64,000 bases of DNA from Candidatus Shapirobacteria bacterium (lineage in GTDB: Bacteria > Patescibacteriota > Microgenomatia > UBA12405): contig JBAZYN010000001.1 of the NCBI GenBank assembly GCA_041659325.1, positions 238,819-302,818 on the forward strand. The letters are read 5' to 3'. A model generated the notes under the pieces. The model did not search any database. It was given only the letters and a program-made list of their open reading frames with translations, and had not been told where the DNA came from. This document shows, piece after piece, positions 25,168-51,879 of this stretch; the stretch's first letter is position 1, and every line of letters begins with the position of its first letter. Position numbers and translations under genes: made by a program.

Positions 25168-25250
25168 CTGCTTTTATTATATATATAAACTATTACAGGA
25201 CATTATATCTCAATTTTACCCCATGTCAAGTAGTCTGCTATACTTTCACT

Positions 25251-25976
25251 ATGCATAAAAAACTTCTCAAAGAACTATCAATATTTTTTCCATGCTACAA
25301 CGAGGAAAAAAACATATCAGATACGGTTGACAAAGCAGTCCCCGTTTTGAAAAAAATATCCGACCAGTGGGAAATTATATTGGTTAATGACGGTTCAAAA
25401 GATAAAACGCCCCAAGTTCTTGAAACTATCAAAAAAAAATACCCCCAAAACACTTCTATTATCACTCACAATCCCAATAGGGGATATGGGGCCGCTTTTA
25501 AAAGCGGAGTCTATAACTCAAGATACGAGTGGATTGCCTTTACAGACGCAGACGGTCAATTTGATTTTTCCGAAATTACTAAACTGATCAAAAAACAACA
25601 GACTACCGGTGCTGATTTAGTTATAGGATATTATTTAGGGAGAAAAGTCCCGTTTTACCGAATCTGGGGATCTTCTCTTTGGCAAATCGCTGTATTCATT
25701 CTTTTCGGTCTTAAAGTAAAAGATATCGACTGCGGCTTTAAACTCATTCGGAAAAAAGTAATCGACACCATTCCGAAGCTAGAGGCCGAAAGAGGGCCGT
25801 TTATATCAAGTGAATTCCTAATTAAAGCAAAAAAATCCGGTTATAAAATAGTAGAAATCGGAGTAAGTCATTTTAGTCGCACGGCCGGTGAAGCAACCGG
25901 AGCCAAACTAAACGTCATTCTGGCCGGATTCAAGGATCTGTTCCGGCTCTGGTACAAAATAAATTTCCAAAAATGA
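25251..25976 (+). CDS. Polyprenyl-phosphate sugar synthase (GT2; DPM1/ArnC/CsbB-like), cassette A
   Basis: 'FFPCYNEEKNI' is followed by 'IILVNDGSKDKT', then 'FTDADGQF' (DxD), and a C-terminal amphipathic/TM anchor. Confidence 0.7.
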   Translation: MHKKLLKELSIFFPCYNEEKNISDTVDKAVPVLKKISDQWEIILVNDGSKDKTPQVLETIKKKYPQNTSIITHNPNRGYGAAFKSGVYNSRYEWIAFTDADGQFDFSEITKLIKKQQTTGADLVIGYYLGRKVPFYRIWGSSLWQIAVFILFGLKVKDIDCGFKLIRKKVIDTIPKLEAERGPFISSEFLIKAKKSGYKIVEIGVSHFSRTAGEATGAKLNVILAGFKDLFRLWYKINFQK

Positions 25977-27469
25977 CCTTGTTTCGAAGAATCCTTGGTT
26001 ATGCTAAAACTGAAAAGACCCTAATTCTCATCCTTTTTCTTGCCGCCTTTTTCAGACTTTATGATGTTGGCGGCTATATGGAATTCTTGGGTGATCAGGG
26101 AAGGGACATGGTAATTGTCCGAGATTTCCTTAAAAACGGTAATCTTTTTTTTATCGGGCCTCAAACCAGCATCGGTAACATGTATCTCGGCCCGTTCTAC
26201 TACTACCTAATTGCCCCATCACTGCTTTTATCCGGATATAACCCCACAGGACCATCAATATTTATCGCCATTTTATCTATATTAACCGTTTTTCTGATTT
26301 ATAAAATTTCAAATAAATGGTTTAGCAAAAATACCGCCATTATTGCCTCAATTTTGTATTCTATTTCTCCGGTTGTAATTAAATACTCCAATTTCTCCTG
26401 GAATCCAAATGTAATGCCTTTATTTTCCCTGCTTTTTGTATATTTTATGGTTGAAGGTCTTACTCAAAAAAAATACCTCTATTTTATCTACGCATCTCTT
26501 TCCTATATTATGGCCATTAATTCCCATTATCTAGCCCTCCTTCTGCTCCCTCTTGCAGCAGTCTTGTGGTTTATCCACTTGTTCAAAACAAAGAAGATCT
26601 CCAAAGAGTTCTTCACTTTTACCATATACGCGATAGTAATTTTTGTGATTTCCCTGACTCCTCAGATATTATTTGACCTGAAACATCAAAACCAAAACTT
26701 AAACGCTTTAGTCAAGTTCTTTACCAACAGGGAAACCACTGTCAATCTAAAGGCTTACAAGACCCTCCCTAGCCTGATTCCTCTGACTAATCAGATCAAT
26801 TCCCGTCTCCTCCTGGGAAAAAACGAAACATTATCCCTACCGCTAACCGTCTTTATTTTTGTAGGCTCATTTCTGGTTTTTTTCAAAAAAAATACCAAAA
26901 GAACCTATTTCGTTGCCCTATTTCTGTGGTTACTTTTTGGCATCGGCGGGTTGGGACTGTACAAACAACATATATACGACCACTACTTTGGCTTTATCTT
27001 TCCGGTCCCATTTATTATTGTAGGCATAGTTTTAAGCTCGCTATTTGAATTCAACCGTTTGACCAAAATTGTCGGCTCGGCCCTGCTTCTCATTTTAGTT
27101 TATCTATCCGTTCTTGAAACACCCATCCAATACCCTCCAAACAATCAATTGCAAACTACACAAACTATCGTCAAATCAATTCTCGCTGAATCAAATAATC
27201 AACCTTTTAATTTTGCCCTTCTGGCAAAACAAAATTATGACCCGCCTTATAGGTATTATTTTTCCGAATATAACTCACAAATCTATCTTCTTCAAGATAA
27301 GATTACCGACCAACTTTTTGTAGTTTGCGAACCATGGCAGATAGACTGCCAACCGATAAACAACCCCGAATGGAATATTGCCGCCTTTGGGTGGGCAAAA
27401 ATTGACAAACAATGGCAAATAAACGGAATAACAATATTTAAGCTAACTCATAATGTTCCGAAAAATTAA
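25973..27469 (+). CDS. ArnT-like GT-C membrane glycosyltransferase, cassette A copy 1
   Basis: 'LGDQGRDMVIVRDFLKNGNLFFIGPQTSIGNMYLGPFYYYLIAP' can be compared with the ArnT 'DEARYAEI..M...GDW..P...G.PYFEKPPL.YW' loop. The protein is polytopic. Confidence 0.55.
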   Translation: MTLFRRILGYAKTEKTLILILFLAAFFRLYDVGGYMEFLGDQGRDMVIVRDFLKNGNLFFIGPQTSIGNMYLGPFYYYLIAPSLLLSGYNPTGPSIFIAILSILTVFLIYKISNKWFSKNTAIIASILYSISPVVIKYSNFSWNPNVMPLFSLLFVYFMVEGLTQKKYLYFIYASLSYIMAINSHYLALLLLPLAAVLWFIHLFKTKKISKEFFTFTIYAIVIFVISLTPQILFDLKHQNQNLNALVKFFTNRETTVNLKAYKTLPSLIPLTNQINSRLLLGKNETLSLPLTVFIFVGSFLVFFKKNTKRTYFVALFLWLLFGIGGLGLYKQHIYDHYFGFIFPVPFIIVGIVLSSLFEFNRLTKIVGSALLLILVYLSVLETPIQYPPNNQLQTTQTIVKSILAESNNQPFNFALLAKQNYDPPYRYYFSEYNSQIYLLQDKITDQLFVVCEPWQIDCQPINNPEWNIAAFGWAKIDKQWQINGITIFKLTHNVPKN

Positions 27470-28778
27470 TTCAAATGTTATCTTGCTGATAATTTTGTTG
27501 ATTTCCCTCTGCTTCAGAATCTATAAGCTCAATGAACTTTATAATTTTGACTGGGACCAGGAAGACGATGCCCAGAAAGTGACCGAAATGATCACCAGTC
27601 ATAAGCCCAGGTTGATAGGGCCAAGAGTTGCAAACGACAATGGATTCTTTGTCGGCCCATTTCATTATTATTTTTTAGTCCCTTTTTACCTTATTACCAA
27701 CAATAATCCAATCGCCGGTGCCTATGCATCAATATCTATAGGGTTAATTACGACTCTGGTTATATATGTAGTCTCTCAAAAAATATTCGGTGAAAATACC
27801 GCCCGTCTTTCCGCCCTAATTTATTCCCTACTACCATCGATTACCTCCTGGAACGTCATGTACACCGCTCCGCTATCACTTATTATATTTTATCTGTGCC
27901 ACCAACTTATTTCCGGAAAGAATAATCTTTTTCCTTTGTTGATTTTTACATATTCATTCTCAGCCACCACCCACCTTGTTCCCGTCTCTCTTTTTATCCC
28001 CATTATTATTTCTCTTTTGCTAGCCGATAAAAAACCTTCCTCAAAACAAATTATTTTAAGCCTGATACTTTCAATAATCCCCCTCATTCCCTTGATTATT
28101 TTTGACCTGAGACACCAATTTCTTAATATTAAAAACTTAATTAATTTTATATCCGTATCAAAAAATAATGACTATCCTCCGTATTTATTTTTAAGAAGTT
28201 ACTGGCGCTCAATCAATCTACTTTTTATTAAAATCCATTATTTAATAATTGTTGAAAGAATAGTGATAATTACGGCTGCTTTGACCTCCGTTTTTCTACA
28301 AAACAATAAAAAATATAAAATATTTATTTTCTCCTGGCTTTTGACCCCAATACTTATTTTGTCTTTTTATCGGGGAAATATTCCCGAATACTATTACGGA
28401 TCTTCCAACATTATAATCCCTATCCTCTTGTCTTTCCTGATTTCCAAAATATTGTCAGCAAAATTGTTGACCTTTTTTTCAGTCGCTTTCCTGACATTCC
28501 AAATTATAAATTTCCCTTCCACTCCGACTGGCATCACCCTAAAGGACAAAACGGAAGCAGTGTCTTTTTTAATTAACCAAAACCGGGATCCGATTTTTAA
28601 TGTCTCCTACGACCTCCCCTTAGGTTTTGATAACGGCTATGCATATCTTTTTCGTTATTTTGGCAAAGAACCACAGAACACCCCCGCTGGCCACTTGTAC
28701 TCCATTAGCCTTTCAACACGTCCCTCGACTGGGGAAATTGTTTATACAAACAACACTCTCAGCATTGTTCGAAAATAA
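27453..28778 (+). CDS. ArnT-like GT-C membrane glycosyltransferase, cassette A copy 2
   Basis: 'WDQEDDAQKVTEMITSHKPRLIGPRVANDNGFFVGPFHYYFLVP' belongs to the same family as the 25973 gene. It overlaps the upstream gene by 17 nt. Confidence 0.5.
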   Translation: MFRKINSNVILLIILLISLCFRIYKLNELYNFDWDQEDDAQKVTEMITSHKPRLIGPRVANDNGFFVGPFHYYFLVPFYLITNNNPIAGAYASISIGLITTLVIYVVSQKIFGENTARLSALIYSLLPSITSWNVMYTAPLSLIIFYLCHQLISGKNNLFPLLIFTYSFSATTHLVPVSLFIPIIISLLLADKKPSSKQIILSLILSIIPLIPLIIFDLRHQFLNIKNLINFISVSKNNDYPPYLFLRSYWRSINLLFIKIHYLIIVERIVIITAALTSVFLQNNKKYKIFIFSWLLTPILILSFYRGNIPEYYYGSSNIIIPILLSFLISKILSAKLLTFFSVAFLTFQIINFPSTPTGITLKDKTEAVSFLINQNRDPIFNVSYDLPLGFDNGYAYLFRYFGKEPQNTPAGHLYSISLSTRPSTGEIVYTNNTLSIVRK

Positions 28779-30325
28779 TGTCTACCATAAAAAAATTAAT
28801 AATCCCAATTCTCCTTCTCATTTTTAGCTTCTGGCAACTAAGCTCACTATCTGACAAAAGATGGCCAACCTCACACGATGGCGTTTTTCATGTCATTCGG
28901 ATCAGAGAATTTTTCTACGAGCTGTCTTCCGGCCACTTTCCTGTTCGTTGGGCCAGTAGGTTAGACAACGGCTATGGTATCCCATTGTTCAACTACATCT
29001 ACCCCGGCCCATACCTCCTCTCATCACTACCCATGTCATTTGGCATAAATGAGGTAAATTCTTATAAAATTACCATTTTTTTTGCATATTTTTTAGCGAT
29101 TTCCGGTTTCTTCTATCTATTTCGCCAAACCAACCGCTTTTTGGCCTTAATCGGTTCACTGATATATGGATTAACTCCATACGTTTTTCTAAATATTTTT
29201 GTAAGAGGGGCCCTGGGAGAAACAATCTCCATGAGTTTCATGCCCTGGGCTCTTGTAGGCATCCTTGAACGCAGAAAAATACTCACCGTTCTATCGCTCT
29301 CATTCATTCTAATCAGCCACAATTTCCTGGGAATTCTTTTTCTCTTTTTTTTGATTCTCTTTTTACTTTGGAATAAAAGACTAAACATTTTTACCGTTAC
29401 AACTATCCTATTGTCTCTTGGTCTTTCCGCTTTCTTTTTGCTACCAATGATTTTCGAAAGGCAATATATTGTTTCAGGCGCTAACAACAATTTTACCTTT
29501 AATTATCAGGAACATTTTCTTTACCTACGCCAGTTATTATATGGAAAATGGGATTACTGGTATTCCATCCCTGGGCCAAACGATGGCATGTCTTTTCAGC
29601 TTGGTTTTGCCAACATTATCATCCTGATACTATCAATCTCCACAATAATTTACAGAAAGAAAATTAACAATCTGTTTTATTTAACCGTTATTTATATTGG
29701 ATCCTGCATCCTAACTCAGGGATTTTCATTTCCGCTTTGGAAACTAATCAGACCTCTCCAAATAGTCCAATTCCCGTGGCGTTTTTTGTTTATAACCACT
29801 ATAATTTCTCCACTTTTATTTTTCGAAAACGCAAGTTATTGGATCAACAAAAAACGGACCATTACTCTCGCCGTTTCAATCGTAATTATCATCTTCGCCC
29901 TAATAAACGTCAGAAACTACCGCCGCCCTATGGATTTCCAATCACCGGAAAAATATAATGTTTATCTTGACCTTTATACCAACAAAACCACCACCGCCAT
30001 CCGCGAAGAAATATCACCCAAGTGGACTCTCAAAGAAAAATTCGCCGGCGACATTTCAAGCAGATTCACTATTTTCCCCGCTAATACAAATCTTTTTACT
30101 ATTCGCAAGAATTATTTTCCAACATGGAAACTTATCGATCTTTCAAAAAACATTGTTATTCCGATTGAGCCTGATGCCGATGGAAATATTACCGCCAAAC
30201 TCTCGGAGGGAACCTACCTGCTCAAAAACGGACAAACCCCCCTGGAGATAATTTCGAATTATATTAGCTTATTCTCCCTATTAGTTCTATTCGCCCCCTC
30301 ACTTCTCCGGGTAGCCAATAGATAA
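28778..30325 (+). CDS. YfhO-like GT-C membrane glycosyltransferase, cassette A
   Basis: The N-terminal loop is 'HDGVFHVIRIREFFYELSSGHFPVRWASRLDNGYGIPLFNYIYPGPY'. The C-terminal soluble region carries 'YFPTWKLIDLSKN...' and then a terminal TM. There are five further paralogs in the window. Confidence 0.5.
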   Translation: MSTIKKLIIPILLLIFSFWQLSSLSDKRWPTSHDGVFHVIRIREFFYELSSGHFPVRWASRLDNGYGIPLFNYIYPGPYLLSSLPMSFGINEVNSYKITIFFAYFLAISGFFYLFRQTNRFLALIGSLIYGLTPYVFLNIFVRGALGETISMSFMPWALVGILERRKILTVLSLSFILISHNFLGILFLFFLILFLLWNKRLNIFTVTTILLSLGLSAFFLLPMIFERQYIVSGANNNFTFNYQEHFLYLRQLLYGKWDYWYSIPGPNDGMSFQLGFANIIILILSISTIIYRKKINNLFYLTVIYIGSCILTQGFSFPLWKLIRPLQIVQFPWRFLFITTIISPLLFFENASYWINKKRTITLAVSIVIIIFALINVRNYRRPMDFQSPEKYNVYLDLYTNKTTTAIREEISPKWTLKEKFAGDISSRFTIFPANTNLFTIRKNYFPTWKLIDLSKNIVIPIEPDADGNITAKLSEGTYLLKNGQTPLEIISNYISLFSLLVLFAPSLLRVANR

Positions 30326-31506
30326 ACCAATATACCAATCAGCACCGCCCTACCCATCAGAAGTATTTGCCCGGACATATTTTGAATACTTAACGGAAGT
30401 TGGGACATTTCTCTTGCCGCCAAAAAAATCGCATAGTGGAGCGTTGGGTCAAACGAAAATAAAACACAAAACCATCCAAATATAGCTGCCAAATATACCA
30501 TCATCGATTCATTTTTTATTGCCCAGATGACCATCCACGGCATCAACCAAACCAACCATTGAGGGTGAAAATGGGTAAATGCCAAACTGGATAATAACCC
30601 GGCTCCAAAGGCAGTCAAGAAACTAATATTATTTTTCCAAAACAACAACAAAATTACGGAATAAGCAATAAAAAACCACGGAATAGCTGTACCTCCCGAA
30701 ATAGCGATACCGGCATAGGTACTCTTGTTGATTTGATCAGCAAACAAAGAAAAGGCTCTATAGGCCGGAGATCCAAGATACGGCAGTATTCCCAAAAAGT
30801 AAACCAACCCTCCGCAAATACCCGGGGCAATACCTCTCCAAAAATTCTTATTCCTCAAGATACTCTCCATCACCACAATTGGGATCAAAATCAATCCTAT
30901 TGGCTTAATCAAAGCTGAAATCGCCACCATAGCCGCCGTCAGGCAATATTTTTTGTTTTTTCTCGCCAAAAGTGCCAAAACTAGCCAAAAAGCAATCATA
31001 ATATCCACCTGACCCATCATCGAACCCACATAAATTCCCAGTGGATTAAATATCCACAAAATTTGTGCCAGTCGTTTTTTCTTTTGATCAATAAAAAATT
31101 TAGCCAACATAAACACGATCGCCAGATCGGCCACGATCATCGGAAGTTTGTACAACAAAAGCACCCAGTTTACTGACACACTATGAAGTATATCCCAATT
31201 AGTATTCACGATTCCTTCGGCAGTATCCAATATCAACCCCTTAAACGGTAAATAAAACAGCGATGGTAATATATAAGCCAGTGGTTGATAGTTAAAAATC
31301 ATTTTACTCGGCAAATACAAGACACTGCCGTCTTCATTAAACCTAACCGCCTGGTCATAAAACGACCAGATTTTCCCCTCGCCGGCAATATATTTTCCCG
31401 CCAAGGCAAATGCACCCAAATCCGAATGGTAGGTAGTAATAGCCAAAAAAACTCTCAGCGCGATACCGACCACCAACAGGATATAGAAAATTCTATCTTT
31501 AATCAT
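30259..31506 (-). CDS. DUF2029/GT87-like GT-C membrane protein (putative mannosyltransferase-type)
   Basis: It is polytopic. 'FNPLGIYVGSMMGQVDIMIAFWLVL' is shared with the paralog at 47033..48817. The ORF track extends to 31650, but the internal ATG at 31506 avoids a 100-nt overlap with the opposing GT2 gene. Confidence 0.45.
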   Translation of the reverse strand: MIKDRIFYILLVVGIALRVFLAITTYHSDLGAFALAGKYIAGEGKIWSFYDQAVRFNEDGSVLYLPSKMIFNYQPLAYILPSLFYLPFKGLILDTAEGIVNTNWDILHSVSVNWVLLLYKLPMIVADLAIVFMLAKFFIDQKKKRLAQILWIFNPLGIYVGSMMGQVDIMIAFWLVLALLARKNKKYCLTAAMVAISALIKPIGLILIPIVVMESILRNKNFWRGIAPGICGGLVYFLGILPYLGSPAYRAFSLFADQINKSTYAGIAISGGTAIPWFFIAYSVILLLFWKNNISFLTAFGAGLLSSLAFTHFHPQWLVWLMPWMVIWAIKNESMMVYLAAIFGWFCVLFSFDPTLHYAIFLAAREMSQLPLSIQNMSGQILLMGRAVLIGILVYLLATRRSEGANRTNRENKLI

Positions 31507-31551
31507 ATAGCTGAAGTATAACTCGAAAAGAGATTCTAGTATAATTAACCA

Positions 31552-32316
31552 ATGACAACAACCATTTCGATCATCATTCCCTGTTACAACGAAGAAGAAA
31601 ATCTTAAAAGGGGAGTCCTGGATGAGGTCAATGACTTTCTCCAAACTCAAAAGTTTAAATGGGAAGTTTTAATTTGTAACGATGAATCTACCGACAATAG
31701 CCTGAAATTGGTCCGTGAATTTGTCAATAAACACTCGGGGTTCCGTGTTTTAGACCTCCCTCATGGCGGTAAGCCTTCGGCCGTATGGGGCGGAATAAAA
31801 GAAGCTCAATATCCGCTTGTTATTTTCACCGACATGGACCAATCGACTCCCTTAAAAGAAATCAACAAACTTCTGCCATTTTTTAAGTCATATGATGTTG
31901 TTATTGGTTCCAGAGGTTCGCATAGGGAGGGAAATACATTTTTAAGAAAGCTGGGCTCTAAAATATTTCTTTTAATCAGAAAACTCATTTTACTTCACCA
32001 AATTAGCGACACTCAATGTGGTTTCAAGGCAATGAAAATTGATGTTGCCAAGAAACTATTTCCCAATCTCCAGTTCTTTAAAGAAAAGACAGGAAAGAAG
32101 GGGTGGCGAGTTTCTGCCTACGACGTTGAACTACTCTTTATGGCAGAAAAATGGGGATATTCGATTAAAGAAATTCCGGTTGAATGGAAAAATGAAGACA
32201 CCAGCACGACCAAGGGAGATCTAAATGCCCGTTACAAGAAAGAATCAATCCAAATGGCACAAGAAATTTGGAGGGTTATGAAAAACAATCTGAAGGGTGT
32301 ATATGACCAAAATTAG
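31552..32316 (+). CDS. Polyprenyl-phosphate sugar synthase (GT2; DPM1/ArnC/CsbB-like), cassette B
   Basis: 'IIIPCYNEEENL' is followed by 'VLICNDESTDNS', then 'FTDMDQST' (DxD). 'QCGFKAM' is typical of the DPM1/GtrB family. Confidence 0.7.
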   Translation: MTTTISIIIPCYNEEENLKRGVLDEVNDFLQTQKFKWEVLICNDESTDNSLKLVREFVNKHSGFRVLDLPHGGKPSAVWGGIKEAQYPLVIFTDMDQSTPLKEINKLLPFFKSYDVVIGSRGSHREGNTFLRKLGSKIFLLIRKLILLHQISDTQCGFKAMKIDVAKKLFPNLQFFKEKTGKKGWRVSAYDVELLFMAEKWGYSIKEIPVEWKNEDTSTTKGDLNARYKKESIQMAQEIWRVMKNNLKGVYDQN

Positions 32317-33820
32317 AGGGATTCTTCTATACCGATTTTTAACAGTCTCTCTGATTATAGGACTATATTTAGCAACTCGTTTCCAAAATCTCACTTTTAT
32401 TCCTGTATTTGGGGATGAAGCCATATACCTACGCTGGAGCCAAATTATAAAAAATGTTGAAACCCTTAGGTTTATTCCTCAAACTGATGGAAAACAACCA
32501 CTATTTATGTGGATCACGGTGATCTTTTTCAAATTTATCAAAGATCCCCTGGCTGCGGGAAGGACTTTATCGGTACTATCCGGGTTCGGAACGATGATTA
32601 TCCTTTTTGTCACATATTCTATTATTGAAAATTATCATTCCAACAATACCCATCCCCTCAAATTTATTTTCGAATCAATTAACAATCATTTTTTCGTTTC
32701 TCTTATACCGTGCATCATCTACATTTTTCTGCCTTTCTCGTTTTTTTTCGACAGGATGGCCCTACCTGATAATCTCCTTTCATTTTTTGGCATCTTATCT
32801 CTCTTTTTAAGTCTACTACTTTCCAAATTTAGACGCTTAGACCTAGCCTTGCTCCTCGGTTTCGCTCTCGGACTGTCCTGGCTTACCAAATCACCGGCCA
32901 TATATTTTATTGTCCTGTCGGTACTGACTTATGTTTTTTATCTTTCCAAAAACACAAAAACAATAATTCTGCCTGTCATTTCAGTTGTTCTTGCCTTCAT
33001 CATCTACAACATCCTCCGACTTGGTCCGCAATTTCATATGATTGCCTTAAGAAACAAAGACTACGTCTGGACTCTTTCGGAAATTATTCGGCATCCACTC
33101 GATCCTTTGGTTCCACACCTGTGGGATGTTGTACACATATTTTCTCTATATATCTCGATCCCGCTATTCCTAATTGTTTTCCTCTTTTTACAAAATAAAT
33201 TTAAACGCGACCAACTAGTTGTTTTTTTCTGGTTTATATTACCTCTGATTGCCTCTGCCGCCATGTCAAAAGTTTTTACAGCCAGATATATTCTCTTCAC
33301 CCTACCACCATTAATTATTCTTATTTCTCGTGGCGCACAAAGCTTCGTTAGTAATAGCCGTTTTAAAATATTAACCTTTTTGCTGTTGTTTACAATAAAT
33401 TTATCCACCATCTATCAACTATCCTACAAGCCCTTCTATGCCAAACTACCTTCCACCGAACAGGGCTATCTCTCAGATTGGACATCGGGGTGGGGAATAA
33501 ATGAAGCGGCAATATTCTTGAGAGAAAGAGCCAAAGTTTCTAACGTAATTGTTGGGACCGAAGGTTATTTTGGCACTTTACCCGACGGTCTCCAGATCTA
33601 CACCCAAAACACTTCTCAGTTAACCGTCTTTGGTGTCGGATTGGGTTTTAATTTTATTCCGGAAAAACTTATTGATGCCAAAAATCACGGCGATGAAGTC
33701 TATCTGCTCATAAACAAATCCCGAAATAACCTCCATTTTATGGAAATGGAAAAGATAAAACTAATAAAAAGTTTCCCTAAACCACAAAACGACTCTCTCG
33801 ATCTATACCAAATAACCTAG
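32297..33820 (+). CDS. ArnT-like GT-C membrane glycosyltransferase, cassette B copy 1
   Basis: 'VFGDEAIYLRWSQIIKN...' follows an N-terminal TM. The protein is polytopic and has the same architecture as the gene at 25973. Confidence 0.5.
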   Translation: MYMTKIRGILLYRFLTVSLIIGLYLATRFQNLTFIPVFGDEAIYLRWSQIIKNVETLRFIPQTDGKQPLFMWITVIFFKFIKDPLAAGRTLSVLSGFGTMIILFVTYSIIENYHSNNTHPLKFIFESINNHFFVSLIPCIIYIFLPFSFFFDRMALPDNLLSFFGILSLFLSLLLSKFRRLDLALLLGFALGLSWLTKSPAIYFIVLSVLTYVFYLSKNTKTIILPVISVVLAFIIYNILRLGPQFHMIALRNKDYVWTLSEIIRHPLDPLVPHLWDVVHIFSLYISIPLFLIVFLFLQNKFKRDQLVVFFWFILPLIASAAMSKVFTARYILFTLPPLIILISRGAQSFVSNSRFKILTFLLLFTINLSTIYQLSYKPFYAKLPSTEQGYLSDWTSGWGINEAAIFLRERAKVSNVIVGTEGYFGTLPDGLQIYTQNTSQLTVFGVGLGFNFIPEKLIDAKNHGDEVYLLINKSRNNLHFMEMEKIKLIKSFPKPQNDSLDLYQIT

Positions 33821-33821
33821 T

Positions 33822-35054
33822 ATGAAAAAAATTGGATTTTATTTCCTGATACTTGGTATTTCAGTCATCTATCTTTTGCTAAGAATAAACCGTCTAAATG
33901 AAAATATTGAGTTTAGGCTCGATCAGGGTATTCACTTGCTGGAAACATACCAAATGGTTACTAGCAAAAAAATCAGCCTAATCGGCCCGATGGTCACATC
34001 AAAAAGCCGCGACGGACGAAACTTCTATATCGGTGGAAATTATTACTATGCCCTGGCAATACTTGGCATAGTTAGTGAGTGGGATCCCGTAAAAATAACC
34101 GCTTTCTATAATTTTATCGAACTTACTTTCATAATCTTTTTTATATTTTGGCTTCGTTCAAGATTTAACCCCAATTCCGCCATCATTATCTTTGTTTTTT
34201 TAACCTCATTCTGCTATCTGATCACTCATAGCCGTTTTTTTTGGAACCCGCATTTCCTTATTCCTCTGGGGATATTAGTCACATACTTTATCGATCAATT
34301 TTACCAAAGGCAACAAAACATCTTTTTGCTATTGGCCGCAATAACACTAGGAAACGCCGTGTCATTTCACTACTCCGCGCTAGTATGGACCATTCCGATA
34401 GTCGCTTTCATAATTTTTACAAAATCCAAATCGATCTGGCAAATTCCACTATTCTTATTAGGAACAACGGTTGGAGCCTTACCAATAATAATCTTCGAGT
34501 TAAGACATAATTTTTACAACATAAGAACAATTTTTTTTATTTTTACTCATTTTGAAGAAAACAGGGGATTAACTCCACACTATTTCGTATATCCCACCCT
34601 TATCTTTATTTTATGGTTTTTTGCCTATTTCCAAAACAAATTCAAAGTCAAAAAATACTTTATTATCGCTTCTACCTTTTTCTTATTTCTAATAGGTTTA
34701 CTTATTCCTCCGGTAAGTCCGCTCGACAACCTTTCCGGCTGGGATTACCCATCTCAAAAAAGGGTTGTAGACATTATCACAAAAAACATCTGCCCTGAAA
34801 ATTATAATATCGCCTCCACTGTCGGTGGTGATACCAGATCTTATGACATTAGATATCTGCTTACCATCCGCCACTGCCCACCCAAGGAGGTAGAAACATA
34901 CTCTGACAATCAAACTCTGTTTCTGGTTGCGCCGCCTGACCGGCCTCCGGAGACAGAAAAGGTTTGGGAAGTATCTTCTTTTAAACCGTTTAAAGTTACA
35001 AATCAGCAGGAAATCAATAACCAAATTATTCTTTACCGGCTCGATAAAACCTAA
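33822..35054 (+). CDS. ArnT-like GT-C membrane glycosyltransferase, cassette B copy 2
   Basis: 'RLDQGIHLLETYQMVTSKKISLIGPMVTSKSRDGRNFYIGGNYYYALAIL' can be compared with the 27453 gene's 'LIGPRVANDNGFFVGPFHYYFLV'. Confidence 0.5.
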   Translation: MKKIGFYFLILGISVIYLLLRINRLNENIEFRLDQGIHLLETYQMVTSKKISLIGPMVTSKSRDGRNFYIGGNYYYALAILGIVSEWDPVKITAFYNFIELTFIIFFIFWLRSRFNPNSAIIIFVFLTSFCYLITHSRFFWNPHFLIPLGILVTYFIDQFYQRQQNIFLLLAAITLGNAVSFHYSALVWTIPIVAFIIFTKSKSIWQIPLFLLGTTVGALPIIIFELRHNFYNIRTIFFIFTHFEENRGLTPHYFVYPTLIFILWFFAYFQNKFKVKKYFIIASTFFLFLIGLLIPPVSPLDNLSGWDYPSQKRVVDIITKNICPENYNIASTVGGDTRSYDIRYLLTIRHCPPKEVETYSDNQTLFLVAPPDRPPETEKVWEVSSFKPFKVTNQQEINNQIILYRLDKT

Positions 35055-35077
35055 GCCATTCATAGTAAAATATAATC

Positions 35078-36793
35078 ATGTTGTCCAAATTAACTAAAAA
35101 ACGATTCTTTTGGCCAATCTTAGTTTTCATCTGTACAATTCCCGCCTTTTCCTTTCTTCTCAAACCAGGTTACTACATCATGCATGATGACATGCAGCCC
35201 ATCCGACAACTAAGCTTTGAGCAATGCTTAAAAGATGGGCAGATACCGTGCCGCTGGTCACCTTATCTCGGTTACGAATATGGCTATCCACTTTTCAACT
35301 ATTACCCCGCACTACCCTATGCCGTTGGTCAAGTATTCAGAGTTTTGGGATTTTCTTTTTTGACTTCGATTAAATTAACCGCCATCCTTCAATTTATATT
35401 CTCTGCTCTCTTCATCTACGTATTTGCCAAAGATATATTTGGTAAATTAGGAGGATTTTTATCATCTGTTTTTTATACATATGCTCCCAATCACGCCTTA
35501 AATATTTATGTCCGCGGGGCAATGAACGAAGCTTGGGCATTGGTATTTCTTCCCCTAATTTTGTTTTTTGCTCATCGGGCAATAACAAAAAACAAAACTT
35601 GTTATTTCATCGGTTTATCGCTTTCTCTTTCCTTTTTAATGCTATCCCACAATCCCACAGTTTTGACCTTTATCCCGATTCTGGTTACCTTTTGTCTTTT
35701 TTGGATATACAAATCAAAACATTTCCGGCCGGAATATTTTCTGAAATTAGCTTTAAGTGGGTTATTTGCCATATGTCTTTCCGCCTTTTTCACTCTTCCT
35801 GTTCTCTTCGAATCAAAACTAGTCCAAATAGAAACAATGTTTACCAATTATTATCACTACACTGCCCACTTTGTTTCTATTTTCCAATTATTTATCAGTA
35901 ATTTCTGGGGAGATGGAGGCTCAATTTGGGGTCCCAATGACGGAATGTCATTTATGGTCGGATATCTCCACTGGTTTTTGCCTGTGCTTATCGTTTTTGC
36001 CGTTGTTTTTATTACTTATAAAACAAAGAAAATAGATACTGTTTACATTTTTACCACTATTCTTATATCCACGGGACTATTCACCACCTTCATGTCCCAC
36101 GAACGCTCGACCTTCCTATGGCAGTTATTTCCCGTAATTCAAAAAGTTCAATTCCCCTGGCGGTTTTTAAGTCTCACCTCTCTTTTCTCTTCCATTTCTA
36201 TCGGAATTATTCCTCTAATACTTTCAAAATATATAAAACTCAAAACGGTTGTTATTATCACCGGCACAATTGCACTTATTACCTTTGCAATTAATTTCAA
36301 CTATTTTCATCCCGTTAGAAGCGGACCAGTATCCGATTTGGAAAAATTCTCAGGTGAAAGTTGGCGTCTACAAACTACCGCAAGCATTTACGACTATTTA
36401 CCGAAAACAGCCTCGATGGCGGCAAAAAAACCAGCTACCAAATTTATTGACTCAATAAACCCCCCATCCGATTACATTATCACTGGACAAAAACAGGGGA
36501 CAGATTGGCTATTTTTCAACCTTATCCTTCAAAAAGATTCTGAAATTATCATTTCCCAACTCGCTTTCCCAAACTTTGTCATTACCGACAACAACCGCCA
36601 AATTAATTACACCATTGATCCTGAACTTGGTCGCATGGTTGTCAACCTCGAAACGGGAAATCATCAACTATATATTAAACTTAAAAACACACCTATAAGA
36701 ACTGTTGGCAACATAATATCGCTTTTAAGTTGGTTATCTGTTCTCGTTTACCTTTCTCTGAATCTATGGAAGAGATCAATATCGAAGAAATAA
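35078..36793 (+). CDS. YfhO-like GT-C membrane glycosyltransferase, cassette B
   Basis: 'MHDDMQPIRQLSFEQCLKDGQIPCRWSPYLGYEYGYPLFNYYP' is the family N-terminal loop. The C-terminal domain and a terminal TM 'RTVGNIISLLSWLSVLVYLSL' are present. Confidence 0.55.
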   Translation: MLSKLTKKRFFWPILVFICTIPAFSFLLKPGYYIMHDDMQPIRQLSFEQCLKDGQIPCRWSPYLGYEYGYPLFNYYPALPYAVGQVFRVLGFSFLTSIKLTAILQFIFSALFIYVFAKDIFGKLGGFLSSVFYTYAPNHALNIYVRGAMNEAWALVFLPLILFFAHRAITKNKTCYFIGLSLSLSFLMLSHNPTVLTFIPILVTFCLFWIYKSKHFRPEYFLKLALSGLFAICLSAFFTLPVLFESKLVQIETMFTNYYHYTAHFVSIFQLFISNFWGDGGSIWGPNDGMSFMVGYLHWFLPVLIVFAVVFITYKTKKIDTVYIFTTILISTGLFTTFMSHERSTFLWQLFPVIQKVQFPWRFLSLTSLFSSISIGIIPLILSKYIKLKTVVIITGTIALITFAINFNYFHPVRSGPVSDLEKFSGESWRLQTTASIYDYLPKTASMAAKKPATKFIDSINPPSDYIITGQKQGTDWLFFNLILQKDSEIIISQLAFPNFVITDNNRQINYTIDPELGRMVVNLETGNHQLYIKLKNTPIRTVGNIISLLSWLSVLVYLSLNLWKRSISKK

Positions 36794-38220
36794 AACAAAA
36801 AACCACCACCAACGTGGTTTTTTTATCTCTAAGAAACATCGGTCTTCAGGCAATTTCCACCATTGGTTTTTTCCTATTAACCATTCTATTGGGCACCGGG
36901 GAAGTCGGTTTATTTGCCATAGTCGCCGAATCTGTCGGTATATTAGGATATTTTTCCGATATCGGCCTTGCTTCAGCTCTTATTCAACAAAAAAATGACG
37001 TCACCAAAGAGGATCTTCAAACTACTTTTCTAATCCAACAGATACTAGTAATAGTCAGTCTGATAGTCATCTCTCTTATTTTTTTTCGACTAAGCGCCTC
37101 AAGATCCTATGGTCTCAAAGAAACTTGGATTTTCGTCTCTTTATGTTTTGCCTTTTTTACTGCCTCTTTAAAAACAATACCATCGGTACTGCTTGAGAGA
37201 AAACTAAACTTTAAATTGATATCCACTGTCGATATCGCTGAAAATATCAGTTTTTATCTCGTCGCTGTTGTCTTCGCATTTTTTCACTTTGGTGCCTACT
37301 CATATGCAATCGCTACTTTTTTTCGAAGCATTTTGGGTCTGGTACTAATTTATCACTTCAGCTCCTGGCCAATCGGTTATTCCTTTTCAAAAACTGCCGC
37401 CAAGCGTTTATTTAAATACGGTATACCTTTTCAGTTAAATTCATTTATAGCCATGGCAAAAGACCGTCTGTCAAATCTTTTGGTTGCCGGAATTATCGGT
37501 AGAGACAGCTTTGGCATTCTTTCCTGGGCTCAAAAAGGACCAAGAATCCCTCTAAGTTTTATGGATGCAATTATGAGAGTCACTTTTCCCACCTTTTCAA
37601 GGTTGCAGGACAAAACCGATCTCCTAAAACGTTCTTTAGAGAAATCACTTTATTTTATTGCCTTATTTGTTTTTCCGGCCCTGGCCGGTATTAGCTTAAT
37701 CGCCCCGGATATTATAAAAATAATCCCTAAATATACAAAATGGTCACCGGCCATATTTCCCCTATATCTCTACGCCGTCTCATATGCAATCGCCGCCGTT
37801 ACTTCTCCGATAACCAACGCTTTTAATGCTATTGGCAAAATCACCACCACCACCAAACTTATGATTATGTGGACAATTCTAACTTGGATTTTTTACCCCC
37901 TGTTAAGCCTTCGATATGGTTATATTGGTACTTCATATGCCGCAGTAATTGTGGGATCGAGCTCCTTTGTCGTTTGGATAATTGCCCACAATATTTTTAA
38001 AATAAATATTCTTAAGATTATCCTTCATCCATTTATTTCGACCATACTTGTCATTGTCAGTCTCATATCTCTTCAGCAACTACCGCTAGCCCCTCTTTCA
38101 CTTCTTATCAGCAAAATAATCATCGGAACTCTGGTTTATCTTTGCTATCACCTAACCGTCAGCCGTAATGAAGTTAATTGGTTTATCTCCCAAACTAAAT
38201 GGTTTTCAAACAAAAAATAG
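36766..38220 (+). CDS. Wzx/MOP-superfamily lipid-linked oligosaccharide flippase
   Basis: 'NVVFLSLRNIGLQAISTIGFFLLTILLGTGEVGLFAIVAESVGILGYFSDIGLASALIQ' is the polysaccharide_biosynthesis-protein N-terminal signature. The protein has about 12-14 TM segments. The ORF track starts it at 36730, but an ATG at 36766 is more plausible. Confidence 0.6.
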   Translation: MEEINIEEIKQKTTTNVVFLSLRNIGLQAISTIGFFLLTILLGTGEVGLFAIVAESVGILGYFSDIGLASALIQQKNDVTKEDLQTTFLIQQILVIVSLIVISLIFFRLSASRSYGLKETWIFVSLCFAFFTASLKTIPSVLLERKLNFKLISTVDIAENISFYLVAVVFAFFHFGAYSYAIATFFRSILGLVLIYHFSSWPIGYSFSKTAAKRLFKYGIPFQLNSFIAMAKDRLSNLLVAGIIGRDSFGILSWAQKGPRIPLSFMDAIMRVTFPTFSRLQDKTDLLKRSLEKSLYFIALFVFPALAGISLIAPDIIKIIPKYTKWSPAIFPLYLYAVSYAIAAVTSPITNAFNAIGKITTTTKLMIMWTILTWIFYPLLSLRYGYIGTSYAAVIVGSSSFVVWIIAHNIFKINILKIILHPFISTILVIVSLISLQQLPLAPLSLLISKIIIGTLVYLCYHLTVSRNEVNWFISQTKWFSNKK

Positions 38221-39878
38221 GGATAGCTATATTTATTTTTTTGTGTTCACTTTTCCTCTCACTTCCCATCATCCGAAGCGGCATTTCTTACGATTTTGGA
38301 ATTGGTTTCTGGGGACCAAACGCCCATGACATGATCTGGCATCTGAGCCTTGTCAACCATCTGAAAAACCCTTTTCAAATACCTCTGCCAACTTTTTCCG
38401 GGCAACTTTTAAAAAACTACCACCCATTTTACAATATCTTGGTTTCATATCTGTCCAAAATTTCCGGCATCAGCCCCTCTCTTTGGCTATTTCAAATTAT
38501 GCCTCTACTCATGTCGTTTTCCATTCTCTACCTTAGCTACAGTTTGGGGGAAAAAATCACCGGTAAAACTCATGGCGGACTTCTCCTTGTCTTTCTAAAT
38601 ACTTTTGCCAACTCTTTCGGTTGGATTATAACCCTTATCCGCTCCGGTACATTTGGAGGAGAATCCTTATTTTGGTCGATGCAATCATCAAGCACTCTGA
38701 TCAATCCACCCTATGCACTATCACTAATCTTTCTTCTCGTCCTAATCCTAATCCTTTATCAGCATCCTTACCACCAACATCTTTCCGCCCAAAAACTGGT
38801 CATCGTCGGTCTCATCCTCGTCCTCTGTCCTATCACAAAATCATATTCCGCCATCCCTCTCTATGGATTTTTCTCTGTCTTTAGTCTGGCTGCCTTAAAA
38901 AATAAAAACTTCCAGCCAATAATAATGCTTGCGATATCACTGGCATTAGCCGCACTTCTCTTTTCTATATACAACAAATCATCGGTTAGTTTATTAATAT
39001 ACAAACCGTTTTGGTTTATCAACTCCATGATCGAGTCAAAGGACCGTCTCTACCTCCCGGTAATTGCCAATATGCGCTATACCCTGGAAGCAGCAAATAG
39101 AATTGGTCCGCGCCTGATAGGTCTATATCTGATAGGCTTCGCCAGTTTTGTTATCGGTAACTTTAGTTGGCGAGTTATCGGGTTCTTGTCGCTCAGTCAA
39201 AAACAAAATAAAATTCTTGCCGCCATTATCTTGCTTTTAACATTAATTCCGACATTTTTTATCCAATCAGGCACAAGTTGGAACACCATTCAATTCCTTT
39301 ATTACGCCTTATTTTTATCAAACATTCTTCTGACTATCCATATCACCACCAATCTTCAAAAAGTTTCCATCAAAATCCTTTTATTCTTAGTTCTGACTAC
39401 CTCACTTCTTAGCAATATCGATTTCATCCAAAATTATACCGGCAACCCTCCTCCTACAGCTATAGATAGAAATGAGCTCGAAGCAATAAGTTTTTTAAAT
39501 AAACTTCCGCCAGGAACCATCCTTACCTACCCCTTTGACCAATACTCAAAACTTATCCACCCATCCACACCTCTGCCGATATATCTTTACGAAACTACCT
39601 CGTATCTGGCCGCCTATACCAAGCACCAGACATTTGTTGACGATTATATGAATCTTCAAAATTCAGGTTACAACTGGACCGAAAGACTGGATAGTTCAAA
39701 AAAGTTTTTTGACCAGAAATCAATATACCAAGACAGGGGATTCTTGGTTAACAATGGTATCGATTATATCTACCTGGCCGGATCCCAAAAAAATAAAACC
39801 GATCTGAAAATAGATCAGTTATACATAAAAAATATTTTTGAAAATCCGGAAATTATCATCTATAAAGTGGAAAGATGA
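38199..39878 (+). CDS. Unclassified large polytopic membrane protein (possible GT-C / polymerase-like)
   Basis: The 559-aa protein has many TM segments. An N-terminal loop reads 'GIGFWGPNAHDMIWHLSLVNHL'. It sits between the flippase and a GT2 block. Confidence 0.35.
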   Translation: MVFKQKIGIAIFIFLCSLFLSLPIIRSGISYDFGIGFWGPNAHDMIWHLSLVNHLKNPFQIPLPTFSGQLLKNYHPFYNILVSYLSKISGISPSLWLFQIMPLLMSFSILYLSYSLGEKITGKTHGGLLLVFLNTFANSFGWIITLIRSGTFGGESLFWSMQSSSTLINPPYALSLIFLLVLILILYQHPYHQHLSAQKLVIVGLILVLCPITKSYSAIPLYGFFSVFSLAALKNKNFQPIIMLAISLALAALLFSIYNKSSVSLLIYKPFWFINSMIESKDRLYLPVIANMRYTLEAANRIGPRLIGLYLIGFASFVIGNFSWRVIGFLSLSQKQNKILAAIILLLTLIPTFFIQSGTSWNTIQFLYYALFLSNILLTIHITTNLQKVSIKILLFLVLTTSLLSNIDFIQNYTGNPPPTAIDRNELEAISFLNKLPPGTILTYPFDQYSKLIHPSTPLPIYLYETTSYLAAYTKHQTFVDDYMNLQNSGYNWTERLDSSKKFFDQKSIYQDRGFLVNNGIDYIYLAGSQKNKTDLKIDQLYIKNIFENPEIIIYKVER

Positions 39879-39896: not shown

Positions 39897-40832
39897 ATGC
39901 AAAACCAACCTCTAATTTCTGCCGTAATTAATATCAAGAATGAAGCGGATTCCCTCAAAAAATGTCTGAAATCTATTAAAAATTTTGCTGATGAAATTAT
40001 CGTTATCGACATGTACTCCACCGATAACGGTAAACTAATTGCCGAAAGTTTTGGCGCCAAAGTTATCCAATACCGACCGGTAAAGGTGGTAGAAATTGCC
40101 CGAAATTTTGCATTATCAAAAGCTAGCGGGAAATGGATAATACTTCTGGACCCAGATGAATATCTTAACAAAACACTAAAAAGGGAGCTTACCAGGATCA
40201 CCCAAAGGCAAGATGTGGATTTTGTCAGAATACCTAGAAAAAATATTATTTTTGGTAAATGGATCAGGCACTCCAATAGCTGGCCGGATTATCTTATCCG
40301 TTTTTTCAAAAAAGGCTCCGTAACCTGGAAAAAGGAAATTCATAGCCAACCGGAAACCAAGGGCAATGGGATTAACCTCCTCGATAGTGAAAAACTAGCC
40401 ATCAGGCACAACAACTACAAAACCGTATCTCAATTTGTCTTCCGGGCTATGCGTTACAGTGGAGTTCAGGCAGACGAATTGAAAGAAAATGGTTATAAAG
40501 TTAAAATAGGCGATTTTATCCTCAAACCTATTCAGGAATTTAATAGCCGCTTTTTCTCCGCCGAAGGCTACAAAGACGGGGTCCATGGACTCATTTTTTC
40601 AATTTTACAGGGCTTTGCCATCTCCCTTATCTATATCCGACTCTGGGAAAAACAGGGAAGCCAGGACAAGCCCATGCCAAAGGACTCATTTGTTTCCGCC
40701 AGCCAGGAATCTACCTATGAATATAGCTATTGGTTTACCAGATACTTCAGACAAGAATATTCCAAAAATATCTTTAAAATAATAATAATCAGATTAAGAA
40801 ACACCCTGGATAGGTTTACAAAAAATTTTTAA
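39897..40832 (+). CDS. Family 2 glycosyltransferase
   Basis: 'ISAVINIKNEADSLKKCLKSI' is followed by 'IIVIDMYSTDNG' and 'ILLDPDE'. Confidence 0.7.
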   Translation: MQNQPLISAVINIKNEADSLKKCLKSIKNFADEIIVIDMYSTDNGKLIAESFGAKVIQYRPVKVVEIARNFALSKASGKWIILLDPDEYLNKTLKRELTRITQRQDVDFVRIPRKNIIFGKWIRHSNSWPDYLIRFFKKGSVTWKKEIHSQPETKGNGINLLDSEKLAIRHNNYKTVSQFVFRAMRYSGVQADELKENGYKVKIGDFILKPIQEFNSRFFSAEGYKDGVHGLIFSILQGFAISLIYIRLWEKQGSQDKPMPKDSFVSASQESTYEYSYWFTRYFRQEYSKNIFKIIIIRLRNTLDRFTKNF

Positions 40833-40834
40833 CC

Positions 40835-41749
40835 ATGGTTAGAATCGCAATTTTGATTCTCAACTGGAAGCAGCCGGAATTGACCATTCAGACCCTCGAC
40901 TCCTATTTAAAAATCAAACATAAGAATTTTGAATATAAAATTTTTTCCATCGACAATGGATCAGCCGATGGATCATTTAAAAAATTAAAATCTCTCTACA
41001 AAAACAACCCACAATTAACAATCTTGAAAAACCCTACAAATATTGGATATGTTCCGGCTTTCAATAAGGAAATTAAAAAAAAATTAGACTACGATTACAT
41101 TCTTGTCAGCAATAACGATATATTGGTCGATCCATACTTCTTAGAAAATTTAGTCACTGCGGCTTTACAATCAAACTTCGACATCTTGGGACCAAAAATC
41201 TACTTCGCCCCCGGGTATGAATATCATAAACATCGCTACACTCCCAAAGAAATCGGAAAAGTCATCTGGTTTGCCGGGGGCAAAATGGATTGGGCTAATA
41301 TTATCGGCAGCAACATAGGAGTCGACGAGGTAGACACGGGGCAACATGATCAAATCAAAACCAACATAGATTTTATCACCGGCTGTTGCATGTTGGTTAA
41401 ATCCGGGGTATTTAAAAAAATTGGACTCTTTGACAAAGACTATTTTATGTACCTTGAAGATGTTGACTTTTGCCAACGAGCCAAAAAATCCGGTTTCCGA
41501 CTTGCCTATATCCCCCAGGCATTTATCTGGCATGTCAACTCAGGCTCTTCTTCAAGTGGTTCATCGCTTCAGGACTATTTCATCAGCAGAAATCGTCTTA
41601 TTTTTGGTCTAAAATATGCAAACCTTCGGGCCAAATTTGCCCTTATCCGAGAATCAATCAAAATTTTTCTGACCTCAAAATCATTTTGGAAAAAACAAGC
41701 CGTCTCTGATTTTTACTTGAACAATCTTGGCAAAGGAAGTTGGAAATGA
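40835..41749 (+). CDS. Family 2 glycosyltransferase
   Basis: 'IAILILNWKQPELT' is followed by 'SIDNGSADGS' and 'VSNNDILV'. Confidence 0.7.
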   Translation: MVRIAILILNWKQPELTIQTLDSYLKIKHKNFEYKIFSIDNGSADGSFKKLKSLYKNNPQLTILKNPTNIGYVPAFNKEIKKKLDYDYILVSNNDILVDPYFLENLVTAALQSNFDILGPKIYFAPGYEYHKHRYTPKEIGKVIWFAGGKMDWANIIGSNIGVDEVDTGQHDQIKTNIDFITGCCMLVKSGVFKKIGLFDKDYFMYLEDVDFCQRAKKSGFRLAYIPQAFIWHVNSGSSSSGSSLQDYFISRNRLIFGLKYANLRAKFALIRESIKIFLTSKSFWKKQAVSDFYLNNLGKGSWK

Positions 41750-43681: not shown

Positions 43682-43682
43682 A

Positions 43683-44555: not shown

Positions 44556-44589
44556 AACCACCTTATTGTCCGTTATACATAAACAAAAT

Positions 44590-51850: not shown

Positions 51851-51879
51851 TAGCTTTAGTATAAAATATATGGTGTCAA

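Follow-up and report, generated by a model that had tools for sequence, protein, structure and literature searches.

Two distinct GT2/GT-C modules and exchangeable GT-Cs in a predicted envelope-glycosylation locus of Candidatus Shapirobacteria: a probable mosaic rather than a duplicated cassette

Multi-component transmembrane glycosylation is an established type of system (PMC8035078, PMC11127046, PMC5836110). In the GtrA/GtrB/Gtr* systems of Shigella and Salmonella, the CsbB/GtcA/YfhO systems of Bacillus and Listeria, and the undecaprenyl-phosphate (Und-P)-pentofuranose systems, a polyprenyl-phosphate-sugar synthase of glycosyltransferase family 2 (GT2) is encoded beside membrane glycosyltransferases of the GT-C superfamily with an acidic first extracytoplasmic loop. 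The same arrangement is present in a 64,000-nucleotide stretch of a Candidatus Shapirobacteria genome (GenBank assembly GCA_041659325.1, contig JBAZYN010000001.1, positions 238,819 to 302,818), hereafter the window, in which the region from 25.2 to 36.8 kb is the front part of an approximately 38-kb predicted envelope-glycosylation locus. A preliminary description of this region had proposed that a four-gene cassette of one GT2 and three GT-Cs was duplicated in tandem long ago and then diverged. Our analysis argues instead, with good confidence, that the region is a mosaic of two ancient, distinct GT2/GT-C modules plus exchangeable GT-Cs. Its genes, named below by their first positions as originally called (with m for the minus strand), are as follows.

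25251..25976, plus strand: GT2-A, 241-aa polyprenyl-phosphate-sugar synthase-like GT2, head of module A (PF00535, E 3.5e-30)
25973..27469, plus strand: "25973-type" GT-C, 498 aa, partner of GT2-A (PMT_2, E 1.3e-12, above cut-off)
27453..28778, plus strand: PMT_2-type GT-C, 441 aa, first gene of a two-gene unit (PMT_2, E 1.4e-6, above cut-off)
28778..30325, plus strand: GT-C of the 35078/53511/56159 subfamily, 515 aa, second gene of the mobile pair (no Pfam match; AF2/Foldseek)
30259..31506, minus strand: GT87-like GT-C between the blocks, 415 aa (PF09594 GT87, E 7.9e-5, below the Pfam cut-off)
31552..32316, plus strand: GT2-B, 254-aa polyprenyl-phosphate-sugar synthase-like GT2, head of module B (PF00535, E 1e-24)
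32303..33820, plus strand: "32297-type" GT-C, ArnT-like fold, 505 aa, partner of GT2-B (AF2/Foldseek; PMT_2 below cut-off)
33822..35054, plus strand: GT-C insert separating the conserved GT-Cs of module B, 410 aa (PMT_2, E 7e-5, below cut-off)
35078..36793, plus strand: PTPS_related/PMT_2-type GT-C, 571 aa, last of module B (PF13231, E 2.5e-7; PF10131, E 2e-6)
36730..38220, plus strand: Wzx/MOP-family flippase (Polysacc_synt_3, E 2.3e-43)

Like the three-component systems, this locus is tied to a polysaccharide gene cluster, and the GT-C is the variable and presumably specificity-determining part. There are also clear differences. GtrB, ArnC and CsbB carry two C-terminal transmembrane (TM) helices, whereas the synthases here, at approximately 240-255 aa, do not, and a scan for TM or hydrophobic segments found none in GT2-A or GT2-B. 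The three-component systems include a GtrA, GtcA or SMR flippase, while the window holds no such gene and a MOP/Wzx-type protein only. They also have one GT-C per synthase, in contrast to one to four neighboring GT-Cs here, none of which matches the YfhO family. The label "YfhO-like", first given to the fourth gene of each block, is not supported by Pfam: 28778, 35078 and their paralogs 53511 and 56159 gave no match to PF09586 even at E<=5. PTPS_related (PF10131) was matched by 35078, 53511 and 56159, PMT_2 also by 35078, and 28778 was matched by no Pfam model.

A second parallel is with actinobacterial Ppm1/Ppm2, where the soluble catalytic domain of Ppm1 is either tethered to a membrane partner or fused with it (PMC3485146). 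In that system a soluble DPM1-like domain relies on, or is joined to, a polytopic membrane protein from the neighboring gene, as may be so here, and in both cases the choice between fusion and split varies by lineage (Ppm1 D1-D2 in mycobacteria; GT2-A/GT-C in Daviesbacteria). However, the partner is an Lnt-like D1/Ppm2 domain in actinobacteria and itself a GT-C here. The GT-C arsenal of mycobacteria and corynebacteria (PimE, MptA-C, Emb, Aft and Pmt) likewise serves as a model for many GT-Cs, including GT87-like enzymes, drawing on one lipid-linked sugar pool, as would be the case in this locus. The actinobacterial GT-C genes are scattered, whereas these are clustered in one locus of approximately 38 kb, and the host here, unlike actinobacteria, is an approximately 1-Mb bacterium of the candidate phyla radiation (CPR) without known lipoglycans. 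The ArnC/ArnT lipid A system provides the best solved relative of GT2-A (ArnC, 61 bits), and ArnT is the structure that the 32297 model matches best (E 7e-8). Unlike that system, no other arn genes are present here, and all NCBIfam ArnC scores fall well short of the cut-off (71 vs 529 bits). No lipid A is known in monoderm-like CPR bacteria.

Much of the gene content first described for the two blocks was borne out. All eight open reading frames (ORFs) are present on the plus strand, encoding 241, 498, 441 and 515 aa in block A and 254, 507, 410 and 571 aa in block B; separate gene calls on the identical public sequence agreed with all of them except 32297, for which they gave a start at 32303 and 505 rather than 507 aa. 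The Wzx-type flippase does lie directly after block B, and the blocks are indeed diverged at the nucleotide level, with no repeat between them beyond chance matches of 18-30 nt. The tandem arrangement held in part. The blocks are alike in gross order and similar in size, but the minus-strand GT87-like gene at 30259-31506, which had been overlooked, stands between them, so they are not directly tandem. In the same way, the suggestion that each position is occupied by the same family was correct for the GT2 at position 1 but, for the other positions, only at the level of the GT-C superfamily.

We compared the proteins of the window by all-vs-all BLASTP, phmmer and profile-profile hhalign on subfamily alignments. 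The position-matched pairs proved not to be closest relatives at three of the four positions, contrary to the idea of an ancient duplication of a four-gene module. Only the GT2 pair at position 1 (25251 and 31552) were reciprocal best matches in the window (BLAST 71 bits, 29% identity over 210 aa; phmmer 60 bits). At position 2, 25973 and 32297 gave no match by BLAST or phmmer. Their families are remote homologs by hhalign (probability 97.6%, score 101, 373 columns, with the acidic loop-1 motifs aligned), but the 32297 family is nearest to a PMT-like group (score 174), and the 25973 family scored 204 with 33822, 199 with 27453 and 169 with the PMT-like group. The position 3 proteins, 27453 and 33822, are similar (hhalign 123, BLAST 83 bits), but both are nearer to the 25973 family (199 and 204), and the best match of 27453 in the window is 25973. 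At position 4, 35078 is closest to 53511 (40% identity, 373 bits) and then to 56159, and the best match of 28778 by both BLAST and phmmer is 56159 (143 bits), with 35078 reaching 137 bits by BLAST and 119 bits by phmmer. Sequence identity is 28% between 28778 and both 35078 and 56159, and 26-29% between 27453 and its paralogs in the window.

We therefore regard as highly improbable that a single cassette of GT2 plus three GT-Cs was duplicated in tandem long ago with position-matched orthology kept. The equal gross order and similar sizes of the blocks, the reciprocal best matches of GT2-A and GT2-B, and the significant similarity of 27453 to 33822 (83 bits) and of 28778 to 35078 (137 bits) are all in keeping with such an event, but positions 2, 3 and 4 have nearer paralogs elsewhere in the window, and 25973 and 32297 are undetectable to each other by BLAST or phmmer. 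The doubled pattern is itself not statistically striking, since the locus is saturated with GT-C-like genes: of the 29 genes between 25251 and 63384, 19 are of this kind (one more lies at 11990, giving approximately 20 in 64 kb), and "GT2 + three GT-C" would occur twice with a chance probability of approximately 0.06 under random gene order. Together with the synteny described below, the BLAST, phmmer and hhalign matrices led us to reject an en bloc duplication. Cassette symmetry in a locus this dense in paralogs is no evidence of duplication.

The GT2 pair required separate consideration. The best solved relatives of GT2-A were E. coli-type ArnC, DPMS (5mlz) and GtrB (5ekp), and those of GT2-B were GtrB from Synechocystis (56 bits), DPMS and ArnC, with top PDB matches of both proteins at E 1e-16 to 1e-10. 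At equal database size, the 60 phmmer bits between GT2-A and GT2-B are about the same as the 61 between GT2-A and ArnC and the 56 between GT2-B and GtrB. The top NCBIfam matches of the GT2s were ArnC, dolichyl-P hexose transferase, PpgS and AglJ, all under the equivalog cut-offs. Both are most similar to polyprenyl-phosphate glycosyltransferases of the DPM1/GtrB/ArnC type, and this is their predicted activity. Across Microgenomates, orthologs of GT2-A were 45-87% and those of GT2-B 38-92% identical, and other Patescibacteria contributed more than 120 GT2-A clusters at 67-87% identity. GT2-A is approximately 39-43% identical to homologs from Planctomycetota and Verrucomicrobia, compared with 27-29% to GT2-B.

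In a neighbor-joining (NJ) tree of 116 GT2 sequences from 85 loci, the CPR GT2-A clade joined homologs from Planctomycetota, Verrucomicrobia and Acidobacteria, to which its mean identity is 39%, as against 27% between A and B. Bootstraps, performed on a 78-sequence subset, gave 71/100 for the split of A plus the non-CPR homologs from B plus outgroups, 26/100 for a group of A, B and the Planctomycetota/Verrucomicrobia-type (PVC) homologs versus outgroups, and 0/100 for an exclusive group of A and B. The pairing of the cassette A GT2 with its cassette B counterpart was thus not recovered in the NJ trees. Even if A and B are paralogous, their split is older than the Microgenomates radiation. This bears on a more limited alternative, in which a two-gene unit of TM-less synthase and GT-C was duplicated before that radiation, giving GT2-A with the 25973-type GT-C and GT2-B with the 32297-type GT-C, and the other GT-Cs came later. 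We consider this quite unlikely. It would fit the mutual nearest-GT2 relationship of A and B in every genome examined, their shared lack of the TM helices that ArnC and GtrB have at the C-terminus, the 373-column remote homology of the 25973 and 32297 families, and the retention of both pairs across Shapirobacteria, Amesbacteria and Daviesbacteria. However, GT2-A groups with the sequences from the three other phyla and not with GT2-B, the PMT-like subfamily scores higher with the 32297 family than the 25973 family does (174 vs 101), and since all GT-Cs are homologous at some depth, remote similarity between the two families is expected anyway.

To compare the locus among relatives, ORFs of approximately 25 Microgenomates loci were mapped onto the window proteins. 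The upstream gene order (RF1, LCP, methyltransferase, FtsE, FtsX, M23 peptidase, DUF11/CLIPPER) is syntenic. In 19 loci a 25973-type GT-C lies immediately behind GT2-A, and in 15 a 32297-type GT-C lies behind GT2-B in the same way. Both pairs are kept in Shapirobacteria, Amesbacteria and Daviesbacteria; Levybacteria-like loci have kept the genes but not their adjacency. In three loci, two from Daviesbacteria and one from a further metagenome-assembled genome, residues 1-235 of GT2-A continue in frame into a complete 25973-type GT-C, forming one protein of 708-732 aa:

L016, 10013-12139: GT2-A/GT-C fusion
L021, 9986-12184: GT2-A/GT-C fusion
L069, 4387-6537: GT2-A/GT-C fusion

This fusion is a Rosetta-stone link between a lipid-sugar synthase and its GT-C neighbor. 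Module B in relatives has the order 32297-type GT-C, 35078-type GT-C, Wzx, 38199-type membrane protein and cytoplasmic GT2 genes; orthologs of 35078 are 35-56% identical and precede Wzx in nearly all relatives, and Wzx is kept at its position with 36-73% identity. Together, these patterns point to a module A composed of GT2-A and the 25973-type GT-C, and a module B composed of GT2-B and the 32297-type and 35078-type GT-Cs, followed by Wzx.

The remaining GT-Cs are three accessory elements that vary among relatives: the pair 27453 and 28778, the minus-strand gene 30259-31506, and the insert 33822. They happen to make both blocks "GT2 + three GT-C" in this strain. Relatives have one to four GT-Cs after GT2-A and two to three after GT2-B, so that the cassette architecture is not common to them and a 4+4 arrangement is not ancestral, a further point against the four-gene duplication. 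Four loci illustrate this, with the identity of their GT2-A to that of the window:

L088, GT2-A 78%: one GT-C after GT2-A; three after GT2-B, the middle one GT87-like
L004, GT2-A 76%: two GT-Cs after GT2-A; two after GT2-B
L002, GT2-A 69%: one GT-C on the plus strand after GT2-A, then a Y1 transposase-like gene and one GT-C on the minus strand; two after GT2-B
L086, GT2-A 87%: two GT-Cs on the plus strand and two on the minus strand after GT2-A; three after GT2-B

The genes flanking the locus in L086 and L087 match those of the window at 67-92% identity, yet unrelated GT-Cs (24-33%) occupy the slots of 27453 and 28778. The nearest database homologs of these two proteins are 51-54% and 48-53% identical, respectively. 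Their orthologs are adjacent in L090, just upstream of GT2-B in the same slot (53% and 50%), and also in L089, which lies in the L002 genome approximately 150 kb away from its main locus (45% and 48%). Adjacency at differing sites indicates an independent two-gene unit, which again does not fit a duplicated four-gene cassette. The 33822 slot holds orthologs in L086 (69%) and L007 (44%) and a GT87-like gene in L088, and is empty in L002, L004, L008, L009 and L090. Orthologs of 30259-31506 are found at the same place in L086 and L087 (74-76%) and in L009 (42%). The variable GT-C content suggests that the 4+4 symmetry of this strain is a lineage-specific accident of accretion. In the variable slot of L002, a related Shapirobacteria genome, between the 25973-type GT-C and GT2-B, the Y1_Tnp-like (IS200/IS605 family) gene at 12118-12570, a faint Pfam match, hints at how slot contents turn over.

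We examined the GT-C assignments using structure models and motifs. Searching the PDB with sequence profiles built from the alignments of the 32297 and 25973 families yielded no match at E<=1, and the GT-C fold was therefore shown by AF2 models and Foldseek. The 32297 model (pLDDT 83, pTM 0.86) matched ArnT 5ezm/5f15 best, then STT3, ALG12, PglB and AftB. For the 28778 model (pLDDT 91.5, pTM 0.92) the top matches were AglB/STT3, AftD, AftA, PglB and ArnT, with AglB, STT3 and AftD at E 1e-4. Both proteins are thus modeled with a GT-C fold; the same fold is predicted for 25973, 27453 and 35078 by PMT_2 matches above cut-off, and for 33822 by its hhalign link to the 25973 family (204). Directly after TM1, nearly all the GT-Cs have an acidic loop-1 motif that is invariant within family alignments (FLGDQGRD, FDWDQEDD, FRLDQG, FGDEAIY, (H/Y)DDM or SHDG), the exception being the truncated protein 55168. 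In 25973 this motif is FLGDQGRD, and in 32297 it is an invariant FxDEAIY. We also observed that approximately 770-aa members of the 28778 family (P0316, P0335, P0341, P0348, P0349, P0359 and P0360) have SAM methyltransferase domains (PF13649/PF08241), which suggests coupled glycosylation and methylation; in the window, the methyltransferase is a separate gene (20642-21346) beside the LCP gene.

The preliminary description had also proposed that the GT2 of each block makes a lipid-linked sugar for three dedicated GT-Cs. From the similarity of the GT2s to polyprenyl-phosphate glycosyltransferases, their specific GT-C neighbors and the GT2-A fusion, we infer that the GT2s may well supply dedicated GT-Cs in this way. 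In the mechanism we propose, each soluble GT2 would load polyprenyl phosphate with the sugar from a nucleotide sugar on the cytoplasmic side of the membrane, to which it is probably tethered by its GT-C partner; such a tether is suggested by the TM-less synthases, the invariant GT-C neighbors and the in-frame fusion, in parallel to Ppm1 D2 with D1/Ppm2. The lipid-linked monosaccharide would then be flipped to the outer face, where the GT-Cs, via the acidic loop-1 motif, would pass the sugar to extracytoplasmic acceptors. Exchange of GT-Cs in the variable slots would diversify the surface glycan by altering linkages or acceptors. As the window lacks a GtrA or SMR flippase, the MOP-family Wzx is the one candidate present for the flipping step. 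By analogy with a described glycosylation system that uses a MATE/MOP-family flippase (PMC11127046), Wzx could flip the lipid-linked monosaccharide, or alternatively it may be part of a downstream GT2/GT4 repeat-unit pathway.

Several points weigh against this interpretation of the locus and temper our confidence in it. The NJ trees are crude, being based on approximately 230 columns, and the loci sampled were skewed towards relatives of GT2-A. The description of 27453 and 28778 as a mobile pair is based on three genomes only. Pfam GT-C models were reached only below cut-off by 33822, 32297 and 30259m. Neither a GtrA- nor an SMR-type flippase was found among the window ORFs, small ORFs included, and no initiating phosphoglycosyltransferase was seen in the window, which makes the link to a Wzx-dependent polymer a conjecture.

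The identity of the acceptor can be considered in the context of the flanking genes, which are as follows.

19618..20649, plus strand: LytR-CpsA-Psr (LCP) family protein, upstream (PF03816, E 1.6e-22; syntenic in relatives)
38199..39878, plus strand: conserved protein with approximately 9 TM segments, candidate polymerase (orthologs after Wzx in L008, L088 and L090)
39897..45402, plus strand: six cytoplasmic glycosyltransferases, five GT2 and one GT4 (Pfam)
45399..62563: array of 11 further GT-C-like genes (Pfam, BLASTP, hhalign)

The six GT2/GT4 genes likely build a lipid-linked repeat unit, and the LCP protein is a candidate ligase for attaching a glycopolymer to peptidoglycan. With a candidate LCP ligase upstream and polysaccharide genes downstream, the favored acceptor is a wall glycopolymer, which the GT2/GT4 genes would assemble in a Wzx-dependent manner and the LCP protein would anchor in the wall. 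The alternative acceptors are surface proteins. In that case, the GT-Cs would be PMT-like O-glycosyltransferases for secreted or surface proteins such as DUF11/CLIPPER, pilin or S-layer proteins, and not for a wall glycopolymer. This is somewhat unlikely in our view, yet it is the strongest of the competing explanations. Pfam matches to the protein O-mannosyltransferase families PMT and PMT_2 are consistent with it, but PMT_2 also includes ArnT-like lipid and glycan transferases, and the top structural matches were ArnT and oligosaccharyltransferase (OST) or Aft enzymes, not PMTs. GT2-B matches NCBIfam PgfS, a GT2 of protein glycosylation in Streptococcus mutans, at E 5e-15 but far below cut-off. 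A DUF11/CLIPPER surface-repeat gene lies directly upstream and is syntenic in relatives, and the window contains a sortase gene, but the locus lies between the candidate LCP ligase and the Wzx/GT2/GT4 polysaccharide cluster, and its approximately 20 GT-Cs exceed what is typical for protein O-mannosylation.

A bolder possibility is that Microgenomates use a mycobacteria-like, GT-C-driven form of extracytoplasmic glycan assembly, in which the synthase is physically coupled to the GT-C, possibly with no separate flippase, and the variable slots serve as a serotype-like hot spot for exchange of GT-C genes or gene pairs between strains. One complex would then channel both synthesis at the inner face and use at the outer, and slot exchange would occur under phage or host pressure. 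We hold this to be doubtful, and offer it as speculation.

The enzyme families and the logic of such a locus are already known, but the lineage is little studied; no paper on GT-C arrays in CPR, Patescibacteria or Shapirobacteria was found in the literature library searched. CPR/Patescibacteria have tiny genomes and envelopes that are almost uncharacterized, yet approximately 20 GT-C-like genes are present in this one locus. A deeply conserved two-module core with strain-variable slots suggests strong selection on surface-glycan diversity in these episymbionts. The conserved pairing and fusion of a TM-less synthase with a GT-C also provides a hypothesis for how lipid-linked donors are made and handed over.

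Junctions between genes in the region include start/stop overlaps (ATGA, TAATG), with 25973 overlapping GT2-A by ATGA, which suggests operons. Promoter and terminator scans performed no better than shuffles. A perfect sigma-70 consensus (TTGACA, 16 nt, TATAAT) is present on the minus strand at 25202-25229, upstream of the DUF11/CLIPPER gene (24541-25167, minus strand), in the 84-nt divergent intergenic region that this gene shares with GT2-A. The protein encoded at 38199-39878, which sits directly behind Wzx here and in all relatives examined, may be a Wzy-like polymerase; neither Pfam nor NCBIfam gave a match, hhalign did not link it to the GT-C subfamilies, and no family could be assigned. 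The downstream array contains the closest paralogs of 35078 (53511 and 56159), of 30259m (47033m, whose GT87 match clears the cut-off), and of the 32297 family (the PMT-like group). Seven PMT-like paralogs (45399, 48810, 51880, 57807, 59368, 60971 and 11990) have a mutual identity of 24-37% and a common loop-1 motif, xDE(A/V)xxGYNAYSL. Between 53511 and 56159, the plus-strand gene at 55168-56178 encodes a truncated, 336-aa paralog of the 35078/53511 subfamily without the (H/Y)DD loop-1 motif and the C-terminal half, and is probably a decaying tandem duplicate.

Two further observations concern the wider window. The plus-strand gene at 3922-6102 encodes a 726-aa class II aminoacyl-tRNA synthetase of the LysRS type (tRNA-synt_2 and OB anticodon domain) with a C-terminal B3_4 domain (PF03483, E 3e-25). 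As PheRS beta subunits are the usual place for a B3_4 domain, the protein appears to be an unusual fusion. Finally, GC skew is negative (-0.06 to -0.31) over the window (1-64000) although most genes are on the plus strand, which could reflect codon or amino-acid bias of membrane proteins, or the replication strand.

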